This document shows positions 1 through 6,070 of a stretch of 6,070 bases of DNA, piece after piece. Source of the stretch: a virus. Its lineage: Duplodnaviria > Heunggongvirae > Uroviricota > Caudoviricetes. A program made the translations under genes and the position numbers. The stretch lies in the IMG/VR virus record IMGVR_UViG_2529292869_000013, one strand, 5' to 3'. The notes beneath the pieces are model-generated. The model worked only from the letters and a program-made list of their open reading frames with translations. It made no database searches and was not told where the DNA came from. The stretch's first letter is position 1; every line of letters starts with the position of its first letter.

Positions 1-1184
1 ATTTCCGGTGCCTTACCACTGATGAAGGCTGAGGTGCGCCCGGCTGCGTTCAGAATAGCGGTTGCCAGACGATCCGGAATAATGCTCCTGCGCGCCCATG
101 AACTGAAATGTGTCGGGCGGTTTGATGATACCTGGTTTCCATTCGTTCTCGATGCCGCACCGTAATATCCTGATGCCGGAATATCCGGATCTTCTGCCGG
201 CGCGTTAGTGGCGGTATTGACGCCGTTACCGTCTGTCATGAAGGGCACAAAATAAACGCCCTCACTCTCCCTGTTTTTATACCCGCCGTACACGGTGTCG
301 TACTGGGTAGCGTATGTATTTTTCCAGTAATACGTCGTGTCACCACAAATCCACGGCACATCTGCAGCACTGCCACCATGGCACTGCGCGTTAAACACGG
401 AGAGGTCAGCACGAAACTGTGCCAGCATGGCTGTAAACAGCGCAGGTTGCTGTGCGTGGGTGGCGGCGCTCATGTCAAACTCTCCCTGCATCCAGCACAC
501 CGCCAGCAACACATTTTTCGGGTTCTTCTGTAATGCAGCTTTAGTGCGCGCAATCAGGTCCTGATATAACGGTTTACCCACACCCCAGCGCGCCGAATCC
601 TGGCTGGCCCCCGCGTCCGCACTGAATGTCCCCTCAGCGCCCTGGGTGAATGCAGAACCACCACGACAGCATGGTACCAGCAGGATCCCCGCGTTATTCG
701 GGATATACGGAAGCAGTTTTTTGGCAATATGTAAGCCCTGGCCGACACAGCCGTACTGCCCTTTGCTCAGGTCTGCCTTCGGATGATTCAGCGTACTCAT
801 ATCCTGCACATCATGCAGGCAGTGGTCAGCCGGAATGATGTCGTTATACGTACAACTCTCTCCACCCGGAGTTACCGTGCTGCGGCGCGCCAGCTGTTTA
901 ATGCGCGGATCCGGAGCATCGTAAGAATCCGGTAACGGAAGCCCTTCACCGTAGGCCATGCCGTTGGACTGTCCGGCAAGCACAACCACGTAGAACCAGT
1001 CCGGCTTAGATGAAGGGCCGACCTGTGGATCTCCTTCAATAGCCACCGCCTGCATCAGTGTGTACGGCGTAATGGCAACCGGTCCGCCGTATGGCTGCCA
1101 GCCCTCTTTCAGTTTGTGTGTCAGCTTTTCCGCAAGGTCTGACGGCGACGCCGCCCTGACAACATCATAGTGTTTAAATGCCAT
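1..1184 (-). CDS. NanS-p-like sialate O-acetylesterase (DUF1737-type N-terminal domain fused to SGNH/SASA esterase domain); partial, 3' end runs off the window start
   Basis: ATG at 1184..1182 preceded by SD GGGAGGA. Translation begins MAFKHYDVVRAASPSDLAEKLTHKLKEGWQPYGG and contains VLAGQSNGMAYGEG (GQSN catalytic-Ser block of SGNH esterases). The frame stays open to position 1 (no complete minus-strand ORF is listed here in the track, consistent with an edge-truncated gene). Family assignment is from memory of prophage NanS-p proteins. Confidence 0.7.
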   Translation of the reverse strand, partial: MAFKHYDVVRAASPSDLAEKLTHKLKEGWQPYGGPVAITPYTLMQAVAIEGDPQVGPSSKPDWFYVVVLAGQSNGMAYGEGLPLPDSYDAPDPRIKQLARRSTVTPGGESCTYNDIIPADHCLHDVQDMSTLNHPKADLSKGQYGCVGQGLHIAKKLLPYIPNNAGILLVPCCRGGSAFTQGAEGTFSADAGASQDSARWGVGKPLYQDLIARTKAALQKNPKNVLLAVCWMQGEFDMSAATHAQQPALFTAMLAQFRADLSVFNAQCHGGSAADVPWICGDTTYYWKNTYATQYDTVYGGYKNRESEGVYFVPFMTDGNGVNTATNAPAEDPDIPASGYYGAASRTNGNQVSSNRPTHFSSWARRSIIPDRLATAILNAAGRTSAFISGKAPE

Positions 1185-1377
1185 GAATCCTCCCGGCCGG
1201 GATAATATTGTGAGTAAAATGAGGAGCGGGCTGAAGTCCGGAAGTTACAGGACAATGGCAGAAGAGAGACAACAGCCCGCAATACGAAAAAGGCCGCGCT
1301 ATTGCGCAGAGTGATTACTGTCGGATATTATTCGCCAGCTGAAATATTACTTCACGTTTTGTTGTTTATTCCTTGCC

Positions 1378-1406
1378 GCCCGCGTCTCCCTGCGCGGGCT
1401 TTTTTT
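1378..1406 (+). terminator. Intrinsic terminator, plus-strand orientation
   Basis: Perfect 7-bp GC stem GCCCGCG (1378..1384) / CGCGGGC (1393..1399) with an 8-nt loop, followed by T7 (1400..1406). Confidence 0.5.
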
Positions 1407-1408
1407 GT

Positions 1409-1437
1409 CCATAAGAAAGCCCCTCCGGAGAGGGGCT
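1409..1437 (-). terminator. Hairpin with weak U-tract, minus-strand orientation (possible terminator)
   Basis: 8-bp stem AGCCCCTC / GAGGGGCT (1418..1437) with 4-nt loop. On the minus strand it is followed by TTCTTAT. Lies back-to-back with the plus-strand terminator. Confidence 0.3.
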
Positions 1438-1633
1438 GGAGAGTGGCGCTATGTGCCATTGCATGGTGCCGGGTGCCTCCCGGTGAATTCAGTACCAGCA
1501 CCTGAATCCGCGATTATCCCATATACCTACTCGCTGATTGCCCCTCCGCACAGGGGGATTCACCATGCCAGTTTCTTTTAACAAACTCCCCGCAAACCAG
1601 ACAACAGTCAACCGCCTGAATTGTGAGACATTT

Positions 1634-1659
1634 AAAAAAAAGGCCCGCAAAAGCGAGCC
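1634..1659 (-). terminator. Intrinsic terminator 14 nt downstream of the tRNA cluster
   Basis: Minus-strand reading GGCTCGC-TTTT-GCGGGCC (7-bp stem including one G.U pair) followed by T8 (complement of the A8 run at 1634..1641). Confidence 0.55.
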
Positions 1660-1673
1660 AGGGAAAATAAGTG

Positions 1674-1750
1674 TGGCGCGTTGTACTGGATTCGAACCAG
1701 TGACCGATTGCTTAGAAGGCAATTGCTCTGTCCGGCTGAGCTAACAACGC
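1674..1750 (-). tRNA. argO: tRNA-Arg, anticodon UCU
   Basis: 77-nt cloverleaf folded by hand: perfect acceptor stem GCGTTGT/ACAACGC, D-arm GCTC...GAGC, anticodon stem ATTGC/GCAAT with loop CTTCTAA, T-arm ACTGG-TTCGAAT-CCAGT, discriminator G, encoded CCA. Symbol assigned by position in the ileZ-argN-argO cluster recalled from 933W-type phages. Confidence 0.85.
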
Positions 1751-1763
1751 AGGATACAGATAA

Positions 1764-1840
1764 TGGACCGCCTTCGGGGACCCGAACTCCGCGCAACCAG
1801 CTTCGAAAGCTGGCGCTCTTTCCTGATGAGCTAATGGCGG
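1764..1840 (-). tRNA. argN: tRNA-Arg-like, anticodon UCG by hand folding; imperfect stems
   Basis: D-arm GCTC/GAGC and anticodon stem CCAGC/GCTGG are perfect, loop TTTCGAA, encoded CCA. The acceptor stem has an A-A mismatch (6-67), the T-stem has an A-C mismatch and the T-loop is TTCGGGT. Symbol is positional only. Confidence 0.5.
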
Positions 1841-1847
1841 TATGTGA

Positions 1848-1923
1848 TGGTGGCCCTTGCTGGATTTGAACCAGCGACCTGGCGATTATGAGTCGCTCGC
1901 TCTCACCACTGAGCTAAAGGGCC
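1848..1923 (-). tRNA. ileZ: tRNA-Ile2-like, anticodon CAU (ileX/ileZ type, presumed lysidine-modified)
   Basis: 76-nt cloverleaf: acceptor GGCCCTT/AAGGGCC, D-arm GCTC-AGTGGTGA-GAGC, anticodon loop CTCATAA, T-arm GCTGG-TTCAAAT-CCAGC, encoded CCA. Closely resembles the E. coli ileX sequence as I recall it. Confidence 0.85.
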
Positions 1924-1951
1924 GGGTCAAAAAATAATAATCAGATGAAAA

Positions 1952-2665
1952 TCAATAATCAAGCCCTTGCCTGGATACATATCTGTCTGGCGGGAAGCCA
2001 TAATAGCGGTGAAATACAGAAATAAAGTAGGACCAGCTTGAATAACCACATTTTTCTGCTACAGCCTGTCCATATCCATACCGGGAACATAACATATTGA
2101 CAGCAACACGCATCCGCTCTTCCAGCAACAAGCGACTGAACATGTGCCCTTCATTTTTCAGTTTTGTCTTTAACAAACTCTCACTCATATGCAGGCGTAA
2201 CGCAATCGCACCAAGCGTCCAGCTTGCTGATATATCTGTCTGAATTATCGCCCTGACTTTGGCACTTATACTGGATAAACATCCACTTAAAAACAATGAC
2301 ATCCGTTCATCTGTTTCAAACAGAGACAGGCAGGCCATCATAAGAAACATATCCGTGACCTCTCCGGAAAATCCCTGGCTGGTAATTAAAGCCGCAGCCA
2401 ACGCAGGATTGTTGGGTTCCAGCAACAGGTAAAGCGGAATGTCAGTCAGATGAGTTCTTGTCAGCTTATGCTGAATTTCCAGATATTGACTTACTATGGA
2501 ATGGTTTATATCGAAAATTTTAACTTTGCCATAATGCATAAGGAAAAGCGCCCTGATGCATTTGGTGGCCAGAACGACTGAGCCTGGCTTAAGTGACAAC
2601 GTATCCTTTTCAAGAAAAATATTAATTGGGGAGCAAACCATGATAACTGAACAGACAACAGCCAT
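1952..2665 (-). CDS. AraC-family transcriptional regulator, AppY/GadX/YdeO-like
   Basis: 237-aa ORF. N-terminus MAVVCSVIMVCS parallels AppY MDYVCSVV as recalled. C-terminus has the AraC-type HTH signature (LCSRYGYGQAVAEKCGYSSWSYFISVFHRYYGFPP). AT-rich, roughly 30% G+C on a hand-counted line. Confidence 0.75.
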   Translation of the reverse strand: MAVVCSVIMVCSPINIFLEKDTLSLKPGSVVLATKCIRALFLMHYGKVKIFDINHSIVSQYLEIQHKLTRTHLTDIPLYLLLEPNNPALAAALITSQGFSGEVTDMFLMMACLSLFETDERMSLFLSGCLSSISAKVRAIIQTDISASWTLGAIALRLHMSESLLKTKLKNEGHMFSRLLLEERMRVAVNMLCSRYGYGQAVAEKCGYSSWSYFISVFHRYYGFPPDRYVSRQGLDY

Positions 2666-2790
2666 TATAATTTTACTTTCATTAGCAATTGGTTAGCTCA
2701 ATTATAGCCCCAAAAGGTAAATTATCATCAACACATAAGCAAAGGACTGACAGGTGCCGCTAACACCCACCAGCCGCCCATTTACCACAA

Positions 2791-2816
2791 ATAAAAAAGC
2801 CTTCAGGACTGAAGGC
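2791..2816 (-). terminator. Intrinsic terminator overlapping the stop codon of the small ORF
   Basis: 7-bp stem GCCTTCA/TGAAGGC (2799..2816) with 4-nt loop, followed on the minus strand by TTTTTTATTT (2798..2789). Confidence 0.5.
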
Positions 2817-3000
2817 GTCTGTAACAACCGAACTGATAGTCTGCCAGACCCGCCATAACCAGCTGGGTCAGTATTAACTGGCAGCGTTCGCGTGAAAGGT
2901 AAGTATTCTGCGCAATCTCCCCGACTGTCGCCGGTTCGGTAACGCTTAATTCATTAAACACCACTCTGGCGGTTTCTGTCATATCCTGCTGTTTCAGCAT
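2803..3000 (-). CDS. Small (65 aa) putative winged-helix DNA-binding protein; family uncertain, possibly PapI/FaeA-like
   Basis: Complete ORF with ATG at 3000 and its own downstream terminator. The segment PATVGEIAQNTYLSRERCQLILTQLVMAGLA has the look of a helix-turn-helix recognition unit. No family could be assigned with confidence. Confidence 0.5.
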   Translation of the reverse strand: MLKQQDMTETARVVFNELSVTEPATVGEIAQNTYLSRERCQLILTQLVMAGLADYQFGCYRRLQS

Positions 3001-3124
3001 GTCTTTTTACCCTTTCCGGTTAACGTGACACACCAATAACTCTTGTCGAAAAAGCCAGCAAGCTGAAAGACCGGTATTAATAACCACCAGCGACATTTAA
3101 CGCACTGCGCTACTTTGCGGGCAC

Positions 3125-3146
3125 AAAAAACCCGCTCAGAGGCGGG
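3125..3146 (-). terminator. Intrinsic terminator downstream of the CPBP gene
   Basis: Minus-strand reading CCCGC-CTCTGA-GCGGG followed by T6 (complement of A6 at 3125..3130). Confidence 0.45.
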
Positions 3147-3287
3147 GTCAAGCTATGCGGCGAAATAACCACTCTTAACAGCATACCTGATTTTTTACGT
3201 ACGTAAATGCTTTGCCGTGCATATTTTTCATGCAAATGTCACGTCCTGCTATTTTTCAGTCTTATAAATTTAAAACCATAGAAAAAA

Positions 3288-4106
3288 TCAATTATGTTTT
3301 AAAAATGGATAGGTAAAGAATAACAAGTGACACAGATTCAAACCAAAATGGAAAAGGGTGGCAACCCACAAACGCCCACTCCACATCCATGACAATCCAT
3401 ACACAACACCAGATAACGTGGCAAATAATACAAGTAAAGCACCACCTGAATAGTGATAAAAACCAAACAACAAAGCCGCCACAATTAATGCAACCAATGG
3501 AGACGTTACTTCTGATAGCCGTGATTGAATATACCCTCTAAATAATGATTCCTCTGCCAGAGACACAAAAAACAAATTAGCCAATATAAACTCTGGCAAC
3601 CACTCAGGAAAATGAATCTCTGGCTTTAATCCACCAAAAAAAACAGCCAAAAACAGGATAAGAGGAACAGAGAGCGACAGAGCCCCCCACTTCCACAAAG
3701 ACACTTCTGATTTTACTTCTTTTTTAAACAAAGAAGATGTACACAGGACTAACAAAAATGGCACCAGCGCTTTATCAAAATTAAAATACATTGTATAGGG
3801 AGTACTTTGAGGGCCAACAGTAACAGAATTTAGCACTACAGGATTGTGAAACCCTGGCCATAGATGGAAAAATAATGCTATGGCTGATAAAACTATGCCA
3901 ACTTCATATATAGATTTAGCCCAGGCGTTATATTTCCAGTTGAACTTCAAAATAATAAAAAAAACGATTGTAGCAACAAAAAATAACACCGACCAATCAA
4001 TAATATCATTAAGCACAGCCAGGACAACAGACACCGTCAACAATGAAAAAGCCACTACCTTATGCCAACTGAGAGTTGACAGTGACAGTACTAACACAAT
4101 CCACAT
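3288..4106 (-). CDS. CPBP-family intramembrane metalloprotease (CAAX protease / Abi domain), multi-pass membrane protein
   Basis: Highly hydrophobic translation with multiple predicted TM segments. All three CPBP signature motifs are present in order: EESLFR (EExxxR), FGFYH (FxxxH), HFGLN (HxxxN). Start chosen as ATG 4106..4104 with SD AAGGAG 5 nt upstream; the track's GTG at 4112 directly abuts the SD. Roughly 30% G+C. Confidence 0.75.
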   Translation of the reverse strand: MWIVLVLSLSTLSWHKVVAFSLLTVSVVLAVLNDIIDWSVLFFVATIVFFIILKFNWKYNAWAKSIYEVGIVLSAIALFFHLWPGFHNPVVLNSVTVGPQSTPYTMYFNFDKALVPFLLVLCTSSLFKKEVKSEVSLWKWGALSLSVPLILFLAVFFGGLKPEIHFPEWLPEFILANLFFVSLAEESLFRGYIQSRLSEVTSPLVALIVAALLFGFYHYSGGALLVLFATLSGVVYGLSWMWSGRLWVATLFHFGLNLCHLLFFTYPFLKHN

Positions 4107-4137
4107 AAGCACTCCTTTTATTTAATGATGAAGATTG

Positions 4138-4166
4138 ATTATCAATATTTTCAATTCACCAGGCAA
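4138..4166 (-). promoter_or_regulatory. Candidate sigma70 promoter (TTGCCT-N17-GATAAT) between Q and the CPBP gene; possibly the late promoter region
   Basis: Minus-strand -35 TTGCCT (4166..4161) and -10 GATAAT (4143..4138), about 30 nt upstream of the CPBP start. A second TATAAT sits at 4222..4217 with a poor -35. Hexamer match only. Confidence 0.25.
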
Positions 4167-4257
4167 CATTTTATCTACCTTCCACAATACATGACCATCA
4201 AAAAATAAACATGTTAATTATAAACACAGAAAACATAACCCTCATCACTATATATCC

Positions 4258-4629
4258 CTACCGCATATCCATATCTAACCGGACATTCAGAGCCATAAGC
4301 ATTCCTTCAATAATACCTTCCGCTTTATAAAGCCTTTTACCAATAAGCCCATCAGAACATCTATGCTTACGTGCAAGAGCCATAAATGTCATTCCACCTA
4401 CGTAATAATCCACCAACAAATCGTGCAAATACTGATTATTCTTGTTTAATCGTGCCATACAACCACAAATTATCATGGCGTCATCATCAGAACACTTAGG
4501 ACGTGATTTCACTTTAGTCGGGATTAATCCTTTAAAACCAGCAGCTATCGAGGGCCATGTTACATCTTCATGATTATTTGCTGCCCATGCCCCCCATCGC
4601 TCAAGAACCATCTGGATATCACGCGCCAT
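4258..4629 (-). CDS. Phage late-gene antitermination protein Q (short QuuD/phage-82-like type)
   Basis: 123 aa from ATG 4629..4627 (SD GAGGTGG upstream; the GTG at 4638 abuts the SD). Cys-rich ([21 protein letters not shown]), consistent with a zinc-binding Q. Sits immediately after rusA with overlapping stop/start, as in DLP12. Confidence 0.7.
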
Positions 4630-4989
4630 CGTTACCACCTCTGATTTCGTAAATCTTCACGCCCAGCCGTCCACCTGGCACAGGCTGACCGCGCACAATA
4701 TTGATTTCATCAAACTGCTCGTCATCAATGAGCACTTCCGCATGCGTCAGCGCATCCAGCGGTGCTTTCAGAATGTTGTCCAGGTCACGGCGGCGCTTAT
4801 CCGGTGGTTCTGCAATAATTTTTATGCCAGCCGTCCGGACAGGCTTAATTTCAGCCGCTGCTGGCGAACAATAAGCGCCACAGCCCGGCGATAACGCTCA
4901 CCGGCTTTTGATACAAAATATGTGCTGCCACGACGTCGCCAGTAGGTGTTCACCGTCGGCGGGTAAGGCAAAACAAACTCTATACGCAT
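4619..4989 (-). pseudogene. rusA: rusA Holliday-junction resolvase, interrupted by a -1 frameshift near 4822..4826
   Basis: ATG 4989 with SD AAGAGGT gives MRIEFVLPYPPTVNTYWRRRGSTYF...LSGRLA then TAA at 4824..4822. The +2 frame continues [68 protein letters not shown], matching the RusA C-terminal half, to TGA at 4621..4619. The break sits at a run of five T (4819..4823). Confidence 0.65.
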
Positions 4990-5001
4990 CAGTAACCTCT
5001 T

Positions 5002-6051
5002 TTACCCGAGCACGCCGGTTGCAAAGGCGTGATCAAGAAAACGAAAAATTAAATCAACCTGGGAACCATGCTTTTCTTCGAACGCCAGCGGATCCGCATG
5101 AAGCTCGTTGTGATGCTCCCGACACAGCGGTAGCGTGAAAATATCGTGGGATTTTGTTCCCATTCCCCCCTGACCATGACCAATCAGATGATGAGGATCG
5201 TCCGCTGGCTTACCACAACACGCACACGGCTGTGTCTTTACCCAGCGTGTGTATTTCTCATTTACCCAGCGGCGACGTTTAGGTCGTTTCATGAAGGATT
5301 CCGGAGACTCCGGATCAACGGCAATGCTGACCACCGTCTTTTCCTGTGGTGGGTTCTGTTGCTGGTGGGTGTGAGGCGGTAGCGCAATATTTTTTGTGCG
5401 CTGCTTCAGTATGCTGGTGGCGGTCTGTTCTCCCGGTATGATGTCGCTTTCACGGTATACGGAGCGGATTTTTTCCGCACGCAACCCCAGCGAACGACGT
5501 AATACCGCTTCCGGTAGCGCGTCCGCCACCTGATTGCGGACCGCCCACCAGGATAATTCAGCCAGAGATAATTCACGCTCCTGTGCGCCATTCATTGCGT
5601 GACGGATGATGTCAATCATCCAGGCGGCCAGATTCTGTTGAGCAAGTTGATCCAGTGAATCAGATGTCTGCTCCCGCAGCTGGTTGTCGCAGTGCCAGCA
5701 CAACACCATCGCGCCGGTACCGTAACGGTGAATAACGGTTTCGCTGTGATGATAATCACCGTGTGGCCACTGGCAGGATTTCACGTGACGTAATAACCAG
5801 TCAGACAGTGCACCAGCGCCGCCAGCTGCACGAATCACCCGCTCATCGCTGAAAAATGGCAGCAGTGATTTATCTTCCGCCAGCGGCTGGCGAACAGCAG
5901 GAACCGCTCCAGATGGCAGCGCCCGCATGTTTTTCGGTTCCGGCTCCACCAGCACCCTGCCGCGATGAAAAACTGGCAATGATTCACGACCGGGCTTAAG
6001 GACCACCAGCCCGAGTTCCGGAACCAGAACAGGTCGAAGTAATACCCGCAC
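5002..6051 (-). CDS. DUF968-like prophage protein (YdfU-like) with C-terminal HNH-like Cys/His motif
   Basis: 349-aa ORF ending TAA at 5004..5002, 12 nt before rusA. C-terminal region PCACCGKPADDPHHLIGHG...LPLCREHHNELH has the CxxC...HH...C...HH spacing of HNH-type zinc fingers. The 5' start (GTG at 6051, SD GGAGGT only 4 nt upstream) lies 20 nt from the window edge and is uncertain. Confidence 0.6.
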   Translation of the reverse strand: MRVLLRPVLVPELGLVVLKPGRESLPVFHRGRVLVEPEPKNMRALPSGAVPAVRQPLAEDKSLLPFFSDERVIRAAGGAGALSDWLLRHVKSCQWPHGDYHHSETVIHRYGTGAMVLCWHCDNQLREQTSDSLDQLAQQNLAAWMIDIIRHAMNGAQERELSLAELSWWAVRNQVADALPEAVLRRSLGLRAEKIRSVYRESDIIPGEQTATSILKQRTKNIALPPHTHQQQNPPQEKTVVSIAVDPESPESFMKRPKRRRWVNEKYTRWVKTQPCACCGKPADDPHHLIGHGQGGMGTKSHDIFTLPLCREHHNELHADPLAFEEKHGSQVDLIFRFLDHAFATGVLG

Positions 6052-6070
6052 ATTACCTCCAGACGCGCTG

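Follow-up and report, generated by a model that had tools for sequence, protein, structure and literature searches.

The closest described counterpart of the locus reported here is found in prophage Sp4 of Escherichia coli O157:H7 Sakai, where ECs_1084-ECs_1087 are followed by the tRNA genes ileZ1-argN1-argO1, and in the equivalent locus of strain EDL933. One of the Sp4 genes, ecs1087, is psrA, which is repressed in an hnrS deletion strain and induced, along with gadE, by a pulse of HnrS (PMC13502914), whereas reviews place PsrA at z1789 in O-island 50 of EDL933. PsrA and PsrB activate gadE, yhiF and hdeA and repress type III secretion (T3SS) (PMC10877973, PMC8565820), and psr regulators tie prophage carriage to acid resistance and T3SS control in enterohaemorrhagic E. 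coli (EHEC), a link already present in the literature. Another described system that resembles this locus is the late region of Stx phages (H-19B, 933W-like phages and Sp5), in which the late promoter overlaps the end of Q and the PR'/tR' region, whose cognate Q comes from the same Pfam family as the Q studied here, is the source of the small RNA StxS.

The window (the whole stretch of 6,070 nucleotides that was analysed) is 98.2% identical to Sp4 across 6063 bases, covers ECs_1082-ECs_1088 in unchanged order, and has the same genes, order and strand as the Sakai and EDL933 loci. The minus strand carries, in this order, Q, a CPBP protease gene, the late promoter pR' with its leader hairpin, a winged-helix ORF, a terminator, psr with its own predicted promoter, ileZ-argN-argO and a second terminator. 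Gene identities, synteny, homology breakpoints and the homology of pR' were established directly, and the interval is very likely the Q/late-region junction of an Sp4/CP-933M-type lambdoid prophage of EHEC, in which two independent AT-rich morons flank conserved phage backbone. Q, the CPBP gene and the region between them show zero nucleotide differences from Sp4. The psr allele, however, differs by 21 nucleotides (12 amino acids), which cluster in its central part, rusA has lost 1 nt, the DUF968 gene has diverged by 6.8%, and the winged-helix ORF is intact in the window but frameshifted in Sakai and EDL933. The strain from which the window derives has a recombinant PsrA/PsrB allele together with an intact small gene that is disrupted in the reference O157 strains.

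Three segments between Q and the tRNA genes

A preliminary description of this DNA had placed three genes between Q (4638..4258) and the tRNAs (1923..1674), and we confirmed three ORFs there, all on the minus strand: the CPBP gene (4106..3288), a 65-aa ORF (3000..2803) and an AraC-type gene (2665..1952). Its expectations that Q lies close to the tRNAs in 933W-type phages (about 440 nt in Sp5) and that this interval holds accessory genes of deviating composition were also borne out, and these genes are present or absent between related phages. The interval is indeed lower in G+C than its flanks, but the earlier hand-counted value of about 30% was too low, as computation gives 40.3% for 1950..4257 against 54.2% (1..1949) and 51.7% (4258..6070) outside. 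Moreover, only Q (42%) and the segments of CPBP (35.9%) and psr (40.8%) are low in G+C, and the middle block with the small gene reaches 48.2% (50.5% for the winged-helix gene alone). Morons are autonomous genes added to a phage genome that bring a promoter and a terminator of their own, and the deviating composition that characterizes them is found in the CPBP and psr segments when these are set against flanks of 52-54%.

The 2.3 kb is not the single three-gene insert that had been proposed. Homology breakpoints divide it into a cassette of Q and CPBP (about 3136..4643), a conserved block with pR' and the winged-helix gene (about 2729..3207) and the psr segment (1927..2728). Q and CPBP are exchanged as one cassette for a DUF1133-type Q in the second O157 prophage, L006. 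In phiP27 and WGPS2 the psr segment, with breakpoints at 1926/1927 and 2729-2731 (2729/2731 against these two phages), is occupied by a DNA methyltransferase, and in place of the CPBP gene there is a GIY-YIG nuclease or a pair of reversed ORFs. The CPBP gene is missing from L006, L004, phiP27 and WGPS2; psr and the winged-helix gene occur without it in L006 and in the Stx2k phage L004, and the Q-CPBP-holin loci L016-18 have it without the winged-helix gene or psr. Presence and absence between homologous phages with sharp breakpoints, as expected of morons, was therefore found for both the CPBP gene and psr. As for transcription signals of their own, both have consensus matches to promoters (4166..4138 and 2728..2701, the latter 10/12), the hairpin that follows the CPBP gene is that of the pR' leader, and the psr terminator is unconvincing. 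The earlier suggestion of one intrinsic terminator per gene stands for two of the three, the hairpin at 2816..2799 and the hairpin with U6 at 3146..3131, which lies 142 nt after the CPBP gene and yet is part of the pR' leader, and fails for the AraC gene, where the candidate at 1973..1960 has a fold no more stable than that of shuffled sequence (z = -0.09).

Other phages also carry different genes close to this position. In phiP27 a GIY-YIG nuclease lies between Q and the late-promoter element, as the CPBP gene does here, although the cargo differs, and in the stretch of phage 434 that was compared, which excluded Q, an nmpC porin pseudogene is located directly upstream of the late-promoter element, on the opposite strand, unlike the CPBP gene.

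The same distribution bears on whether the three genes are one horizontally acquired, undescribed accessory or anti-phage defence unit in the late operon, which we regard as scarcely credible. The genes do co-occur in 540 genomes, the CPBP and psr segments are AT-rich, a studied function of the CPBP and winged-helix proteins was not found, and CPBP/Abi proteins are bacteriocin immunity factors in Gram-positive bacteria, all of which would fit such a unit. Nevertheless, the genes have separate histories (psr plus winged helix in L006 and L004, CPBP alone in L016-18, winged helix alone in 57 phage records), pR' splits the CPBP gene from the other two, and psr is a characterised host-regulator gene (PMC10877973). 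Furthermore, the search of PADLOC-DB 2.0 returned zero matches for the CPBP or AraC protein and, for the 65-aa protein, weak partial matches (E 0.003 and 0.055) to the winged-helix portions of larger proteins, and the defence module was rejected as this search gave nothing meaningful. This modular distribution already largely refutes the one-unit reading.

Nor is this a new three-gene module for defence, the locus being already sequenced and annotated in Sakai Sp4: of 5426 complete E. coli genomes, 540 contain at least 80% of the 2.3 kb, the order ECs_1085-1087 is the same in these genomes as in Sp4, and the AraC gene is psrA (PMC13502914). The preliminary description had itself allowed for the genes and their arrangement being conserved and characterised, which turned out to be so for the conservation and for the regulator but not for the CPBP and winged-helix proteins: our literature search found neither a functional study of these two proteins nor a mention of ECs1085 or ECs1086.

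Q and the late promoter pR'

The Q gene (4258..4638, minus strand; ECs_1084 in Sakai) encodes an antiterminator of the PF06530/Q21 structural family (E 8.7e-52, 174.5 bits against a cut-off of 26), which also matches the Q21 structures 6p18/6jnx in PDB (E 1e-7). The PGAP start of Q is located 9 nt further in, giving 123 aa. Neither this Q allele nor the CPBP gene was detected, by megablast or tblastn, in 50,697 records of isolated phages, and both were seen in prophages and IMG/VR contigs only.

The late promoter was located by homology at 3180..3207 (minus strand), with the -35 hexamer TTTACG (3207..3202) inside a perfect palindrome, TTTACGTACGTAAA (3207..3194), a 16-nt spacer and the -10 hexamer TATGCT (3185..3180), so that transcription would start at about 3173. 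The leader (3125..3176) comprises a conserved AAGAGTGGTTA box (3176..3166) and the hairpin CCCGCC-TCTGAG-GGCGGG at 3146..3131, followed by U6. The hexamers match only 8/12 of the consensus and are absent from the promoter-scan list, and the motif occurs once within the window. In an alignment of the window with H-19B, phi345, 434, phiP27, WGPS2 and three other CPBP loci, the -35 palindrome, the -10, the leader box and the hairpin are conserved (the hairpin keeping its stem with a variable loop), and the element 3207..3125 aligns with the Q-abutting promoter of H-19B, phi345, Sp5, 434, phiP27 and WGPS2. In phi345 the homologous site, at the end of Q, is annotated as Promoter and Terminator. In the case of Sp5, the homologous promoter would start transcription 258 nt ahead of the terminator, which is the mapped PR'-to-tR' distance (PMC7547250). 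The Q proteins of H-19B, phiP27, WGPS2 and the window all belong to PF06530, and both parts of a Q21-type late antitermination unit, a Q of this family and a downstream cognate promoter with its leader, are found here. All these data indicate that 3207..3180 is pR', homologous to the Q-abutting promoter of H-19B, 933W-like phages and Sp5. The window and the Stx phages share the TTTACG -35 within a palindrome, the 16-nt spacer, a TATNNT -10, the AAGAGTGGTTA box and a GC-rich hairpin with a U-run, although the identity of the element to the Stx-phage sites is only about 75%. They differ in that the promoter is separated from Q in the window by 1.05 kb containing the CPBP gene, and in that pR' is followed by the winged-helix ORF here and by the StxS sequence in Sp5.

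We considered whether pR' could instead lie in the AT-rich region between Q and CPBP, as in lambda, which would make CPBP the first late gene and 3207..3125 a terminator with a chance promoter-like sequence. Three promoter-like sites are found in 4197..4125, and the first hairpin after Q on the minus strand is that at 3146..3131, which would fit a pR'-to-tR' unit enclosing CPBP; besides, in L020, a prophage with a lambda-type Q, the CPBP gene does follow a promoter and a terminator that come after Q. However, it is the element 3207..3125 that matches the Q-abutting element of H-19B and Sp5, and the Q-CPBP region does not, and the -35 palindrome, the -10 and the leader box are kept across phages with unrelated upstream sequence, so that a promoter next to Q is highly unlikely here. 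All predicted promoters except pR', which is identified by homology, are consensus matches in AT-rich DNA, and such sites turn up readily there, the scan having yielded 13 when 6.7 were expected.

With pR' at 3207..3180, the CPBP gene is outside the late-operon path because it is upstream of this promoter, contrary to the preliminary description, which had put all three genes in that path. Lying between Q and the cognate late promoter of Q, it would not be Q-dependent here. The corrected map alters the set of genes for which a response to Q and to induction of the prophage is expected.

The CPBP protease gene and its position after Q

The CPBP gene (3288..4106, minus strand; ECs_1085 in Sakai) starts with an ATG at 4106 preceded by an AAGGAG ribosome-binding site and encodes a 272-aa protein of the CPBP family (CAAX protease/bacteriocin-processing, Rce1-like), as had been recognised before. 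The match to PF02517 (E 1.4e-19, 70.6 bits) is above the curated threshold of 22.4, and the protein has several hydrophobic segments and the motifs EESLFR185-190, FGFYH214-218 and HFGLN253-257, corresponding to EExxxR, FxxxH and HxxxN/D. It shares these three signatures and the multi-pass membrane profile with the CPBP/Rce1-like PF02517 proteases but differs in being carried by prophages beside Q. It cannot be placed in a named subfamily because none of the curated NCBIfam subfamilies (myxosortases, ABC-permease fusion) gives a score anywhere near its cut-off, and it corresponds to PHROG 13291, where no function is assigned. In an alignment of CPBP relatives, E185, E186, R190, F214, H218, H253 and N257 are invariant and no loss of a protease motif was seen. 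As the three catalytic motifs are intact, CPBP is probably an active intramembrane protease.

The gene is single-copy and is present in 572 genomes, being at least 99% identical in 547 of them, and relatives with 55-84% identity are found directly after Q in prophages of E. coli, E. albertii and Shigella. In IMG/VR we found 44 loci with a CPBP relative, and Q is directly upstream in 41 of the 42 that have usable upstream sequence; this fixed position right after Q is the sole mildly new point of the present analysis. A pR' motif is located downstream of Q in 39 of the 40 loci that combine a PF06530-type Q with CPBP, and in 38 it comes after an intact CPBP ORF. The arrangement of L020 described above means that the position of CPBP relative to pR' is not universal.

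Upstream of the gene, in a 151-nt intergenic stretch with about 28% G+C, a sigma-70 promoter is predicted at 4138..4166 (minus strand; TTGCCT-17-GATAAT), and no terminator-like site was seen between Q and the CPBP gene. The same position has TTGTCA-17-GATAAT in the 83%-identical L016, a promoter-like ATGACA-17-TATTGT is found in the 62%-identical L014, and in L019 no CPBP promoter passes the scan. CPBP could be transcribed from this promoter in lysogens and, after induction, on the delayed-early transcript together with Q. This is a proposal from sequence, as is what is said here about the activity of the promoters, the pattern of expression and the functions of the CPBP and winged-helix proteins.

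Our best guess is that CPBP may be an enterobacterial housekeeping protease that was captured and benefits the prophage by altering a peptide or envelope substrate, for example in immunity or exclusion. A more specific proposal, that it is an immunity or superinfection-exclusion factor made in lysogens from its own promoter and destroying or blocking a membrane-active peptide (bacteriocin, microcin) or a step of phage entry, seems rather unlikely. The moron-like features of the gene (35.9% G+C, predicted promoter, presence/absence polymorphism), its retention beside Q over 55-100% protein identity and two Q families, the invariant catalytic motifs and the labels that some relatives bear in databases ('CAAX amino terminal protease self-immunity', 'lysostaphin resistance A-like') are consistent with such a role. 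Nevertheless, the protein has no PADLOC match, it is encoded by none of the isolated phages, a partner toxin gene was not found nearby, and outside phages its closest relatives belong to the conserved chromosomal complement, where they have ordinary neighbours (mod-like and gal genes in Hafnia) rather than lying in immunity loci. Hafnia and Dickeya encode full-length homologues with about 50% identity as ordinary genes of the chromosome. A literature search for CPBP or CAAX proteases in prophages of E. coli returned nothing relevant.

A broader view of the locus is also put forward tentatively, with a low expectation that it will hold. CPBP would be a widespread, unstudied lambdoid moron kept specifically in the post-Q slot with two families of Q and at protein identities as low as 55%, and may confer a selectable phenotype on lysogens, such as immunity to membrane-active peptides, superinfection exclusion or remodelling of envelope proteins. 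Separately, the winged-helix protein could be a regulator expressed in lysogens from the constitutive pR' transcript, in place of the StxS small RNA of Stx phages. The near-constant position after Q makes the CPBP gene a cheap target for knock-out and expression tests.

The winged-helix ORF, psr and the tRNA genes

The first ORF downstream of pR' (2803..3000, minus strand; ECs_1086 in Sakai) encodes a 65-aa protein of PHROG 331 (E 1e-37). The preliminary description was right about its winged-helix-like nature, as the AF2 model (pLDDT 88) shows three helices and a beta-hairpin forming a winged helix, and Foldseek gave TM 0.75-0.78 to IclR/MarR-type winged helices. Assignment to the TrmB family (PF01978) was rejected, since the score was 18.1 bits against a cut-off of 25.6; the protein is a generic winged helix and 'TrmB family' is merely a database label. 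What did not hold is its description as cargo: the gene is present in 57 phage records, including SfV, cdtI, mEp460, phiP27 and numerous Stx2 phages, in many phages with a PF06530-type Q no ORF of the late transcript precedes it, and by this distribution it is a conserved lambdoid backbone gene. An intrinsic terminator, GCCTTCAGTCCTGAAGGC followed by U6 (2793..2816, minus strand; hairpin 2816..2799; fold z = -2.4), overlaps its stop codon. The Sp5 homologue of the leader hairpin does not terminate the mapped 258-nt transcript (PMC7547250), and if the hairpin of the window leaks in the same way, the winged-helix ORF would be included in the constitutive pR'-to-tR' transcript and made in lysogens.

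The last ORF before the tRNAs (1952..2665, minus strand; ECs_1087, psrA, in Sakai) encodes a 237-aa AraC-like regulator. The earlier assignment as AppY-like was correct, with matches to PF00165 (E 3.6e-10) and PF12833 (E 3e-9) over residues 155-230, which constitute the C-terminal AraC/XylS-type double HTH, and 29% identity to AppY. It is 30% identical to YdeO and matches the DNA-binding domain of GadX (3mkl, E 3e-18); the Pfam/NCBIfam matches to YdeO (1e-29) and GadX (1e-24) are both below cut-off. With PsrA, PsrB and PatE it shares the C-terminal AraC-type HTH, the length of 237 aa and the prophage position, in contrast to its distant relationship (about 30%) to YdeO, GadX and AppY. The gene occupies the same lambdoid late-region locus as in Sp4, with Sakai pchA about 4 kb further on, outside the window. 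The protein is identical to ECs_1087 (PGAP start) at 225 of 237 residues (94.9%), the close identity expected within the Psr family, and its 12 differences from PsrA make it a mosaic: residues 1-72 (except residue 2) follow the Sp4 form, and residues 76-123, 167 and 196 the other paralog. Accordingly, it is 95.8% identical to the L006 paralog, as compared with 90.7% between ECs_1087 and that paralog, and the allele has at most 97.6% nucleotide identity to any complete E. coli genome. The naming of the paralogs as PsrA and PsrB is based here on PMC13502914 (2026) and on the fit to the reported 90% PsrA/PsrB identity. On this homology the regulator is a member of the characterised PsrA/PsrB family and, by orthology, would activate gadE, yhiF and hdeA. 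Its promoter is predicted at 2701..2728 (minus strand; ATGATA-16-TATAAT), exactly at the left breakpoint of the psr segment, and expression may be silenced by Hha/H-NS and relieved by counter-silencing.

The tRNA cluster (1674..1923, minus strand) consists of ileZ (CAT), argN (TCG) and argO (TCT), annotated in Sakai as ileZ1, argN1 and argO1, and is followed by a strong terminator (1659..1642, minus strand; fold z = -3.8). A promoter-like sequence, TTGATT-17-TATTAT (1934..1962, minus strand), overlaps the end of psr directly upstream of ileZ and is a candidate tRNA promoter; in Sp5, mapping placed a primary start site for the tRNAs between tR' and stx2AB (PMC7547250). Rfam matches (E up to 1) were limited to the tRNAs and to STnc100 at 1407..1597, outside the interval, and a StxS-like or other known RNA within the interval was rejected on this basis. 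HnrS was likewise discarded for the window, as this sRNA is encoded by Sp9, Sp10 and Sp12, not by Sp4. Finally, 1..1670 seems devoid of ORFs only through an artefact of the ORF-listing program, and the nanS-p esterase gene runs past the end of the window.

The locus and its relatives

All of the genes of interest lie on the minus strand and, in order of transcription, they encode a DUF968 protein (6051..5002), RusA (4989..about 4622), a PF06530 Q antiterminator (4638..4258), a membrane protease of the CPBP/Rce1-like type (from the ATG at 4106 to the stop at 3288), a 65-aa ORF (3000..2803) and the AraC-family protein Psr (2665..1952). These are followed by three tRNAs with CAT (1923..1848), TCG (1840..1764) and TCT (1750..1674) anticodons, a strong terminator (1659..1642) and a nanS-p type SASA esterase gene, cut off by the left end of the window after its 5' part; the gene inventory of the preliminary description was therefore correct. 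The CAT tRNA is called Met by ARAGORN and ileZ (tRNA-Ile, presumably lysidine-modified) in Sakai and by PGAP. An STnc100 sRNA (Rfam, 138 bits, E 2e-31) was also found at 1407..1597 on the minus strand, between the tRNA terminator and the esterase gene.

Over 6063 bases, the window as a whole shares 98.2% identity with prophage Sp4 of O157:H7 Sakai, in which the counterparts are ECs_1082 (DUF968), ECs_1083 (RusA), ECs_1084 (Q), ECs_1085 (CAAX protease family), ECs_1086 (hypothetical), ECs_1087 (AraC family), ileZ1-argN1-argO1 and ECs_1088, and EDL933 presents the same arrangement. Of 5426 complete E. coli genomes, 540 carry 80% or more of the 2.3 kb between Q and the tRNAs; most of these are O157, O145, O111, O26 and O103 strains. 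Because the same genes are known in Sakai Sp4 and EDL933, and ECs_1087 is psrA (PMC13502914), this is not the undescribed module that had been proposed but an EHEC prophage feature previously sequenced, annotated and in part characterised; taken as a whole, the earlier observation was confirmed in part and its interpretation is supported in part.

Modular make-up of the interval

Homology breakpoints split the interval into a Q and CPBP cassette, a psr segment and a backbone block, so it is not a single three-gene insert. A second O157 prophage (L006) shares 1633..3135 and 4644..6070 with the window, with a DUF1133-type Q replacing both Q and the CPBP gene, and the Stx2k phage shares 1633..3146 (psr and the small ORF) downstream of a lambda-type Q. 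Only about 2730..3200 and the tRNAs are common to phiP27 and Stx2a_WGPS2, which carry a DNA methyltransferase in place of psr and a GIY-YIG nuclease or two reversed ORFs in place of the CPBP gene. A group of IMG/VR viral contigs (L050-L058) contains Q, the CPBP gene, the late promoter pR' and the small winged-helix ORF, with no psr within 3 kb.

The G+C content of 1950..4257 is 40.3%, compared to 54.2% in the left flank and 51.7% in the right one, so the AT-rich contrast with the flanks is real but the value of about 30% originally estimated was wrong. Low G+C is unevenly distributed: 35.9% in the CPBP segment (3208..4257), 40.8% in the psr segment (1927..2728) and 48.2% in the block between them, with 50.5% in the small ORF and 42% in Q.

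The product of the small ORF belongs to PHROG 331 and 57 phage records carry the gene, among them SfV, cdtI, mEp460, Ayreon and many Stx2 phages, which rules it out as cargo; it is phage backbone. Its confident structural model (pLDDT 88) consists of three helices and a beta-hairpin and superimposes on IclR/MarR-type winged helices with TM of 0.75-0.78, while its score against TrmB was under the Pfam cut-off. The ORF is intact in the window and agrees with the family consensus; the Sakai and EDL933 copies have one base fewer (window base 2853), flagged by PGAP as a frameshift.

The AraC-like regulators PsrA and PsrB bind to the promoters of hdeA and gadE and raise the expression of GadE and YhiF; they also increase resistance to acid and repress type III secretion (PMC10877973, PMC8565820). 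Both psrA and gadE are repressed when hnrS is deleted and induced by a pulse of HnrS (PMC13502914). The window protein is 94.9% identical to Sakai PsrA and 95.8% to the L006 paralog, these two being 90.7% identical to each other, in line with the 90% reported for PsrA versus PsrB. It is a mosaic, with an N-terminal third like PsrA and a middle like the L006 paralog; in fact, of the 21 positions at which psr differs from Sakai, 16 fall within 2251..2500 (codons about 55-138) and match the paralog of the other O157 prophage. Judging from these comparisons, the window psr is a recombinant PsrA/PsrB-like allele, and none of the 5426 complete genomes carries it above 97.6% nucleotide identity. Identity to AppY is 29% and to YdeO 30%, which makes "AppY-like" a fair label.

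A 500-base stretch of the DUF968 gene (5500..6000) holds 58 of the 111 differences from Sakai, and the divergence of this gene (6.8%) beside identical Q and CPBP genes indicates another recombination patch. Compared to Sakai, rusA (4622..4989, minus strand) has a 1-nt deletion near 4824 (GGCAATAAAA to GGCATAAAAA), leading to a stop after residue 55, with the remainder of RusA encoded in a different frame; either the gene is a pseudogene or the deletion is a sequencing error.

The late promoter and its leader

Four otherwise diverged CPBP loci share a conserved element 3' of the CPBP gene, composed of the palindrome TTTACGTACGTAAA, a TATNNT hexamer 16 nt past TTTACG, the box AAGAGTGGTTA and a GC-rich hairpin with a U-run. 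With a sensitive search it was detected in 296 phage records; in H-19B, VT2-Sakai and 933W-like phages it is placed at the extreme end of the Q gene. In phi345 its depositors labelled it Promoter and Terminator. The -35, -10, leader and hairpin are kept across an alignment of H-19B, phi345, 434, phiP27, WGPS2 and three other CPBP loci, and the Q proteins of H-19B, phiP27, WGPS2 and the window are all PF06530. The homologous promoter of Sakai Sp5 (TTTACG-16-TATCAT) puts the start 258 nt upstream of the end of the terminator that follows, precisely the PR'-to-tR' distance determined by dRNA-seq and Term-seq (PMC7547250). This agreement, together with the homology of the element, places pR' of the prophage at 3207..3180 (minus strand), with transcription probably starting near 3173; both pR' motifs are single-copy in the window. 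As the CPBP gene is located between Q and pR', it would be outside the late operon, contrary to the placement initially suggested. In phage 434 (L024, 1..1131 and 1501..1582) the same element is found about 120 nt upstream of the genes for antiholin and holin, preceded on the opposite strand by an IS5-disrupted nmpC porin gene, another case of cargo upstream of pR'.

The perfect 14-bp palindrome (3194..3207) overlaps the pR' -35 and is exact or near-exact (TTTACGATCGTAAA) in 434, H-19B and 933W-like phages. Possibly it serves as a binding site for a protein, e.g. as a Q-binding element.

Each gene had been assigned its own terminator. Two minus-strand sites are convincing, a GC-rich hairpin with U6 at 3146..3131 and a site at 2816..2799 (z = -2.4) that overlaps the small-ORF stop, but the fold of the site 3' of the AraC gene is no more stable than that of shuffled sequence (z = -0.09). 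The first hairpin is conserved about 25-45 nt into the pR' leader (769..790 in the Sp5 locus, L025). In Sp5 the published transcript passes the homologous hairpin and extends 258 nt to a later terminator (PMC7547250), so that termination at this hairpin is apparently inefficient there, and in the window the efficient tR' may be the site at 2816..2799. A constitutive pR' transcript of about 380 nt would then include the small ORF.

The CPBP protease

The CPBP protease has several hydrophobic segments and the three family motifs, invariant among its prophage relatives; it matched neither PADLOC profiles nor curated NCBIfam subfamilies, and its gene was absent from the isolated phages of the collection searched. 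A promoter-like site, by consensus match only, lies 25-30 nt 5' of its ribosome-binding site, and the 83%-identical CPBP locus (L016) conserves it. Relatives with 55-84% identity are found directly 3' of Q in E. coli, E. albertii and Shigella prophages, one of them following a lambda-type Q. Among 44 IMG/VR loci, Q is immediately upstream of CPBP in 41 of the 42 informative ones; the pR' motif is downstream of Q in 39 of 40 with a PF06530-type Q, and in 38 of those 39 it comes after an intact CPBP ORF. Hafnia and Dickeya have full-length homologues (about 50% identity) as ordinary chromosomal genes, suggesting that the CPBP protease gene was captured from a host.
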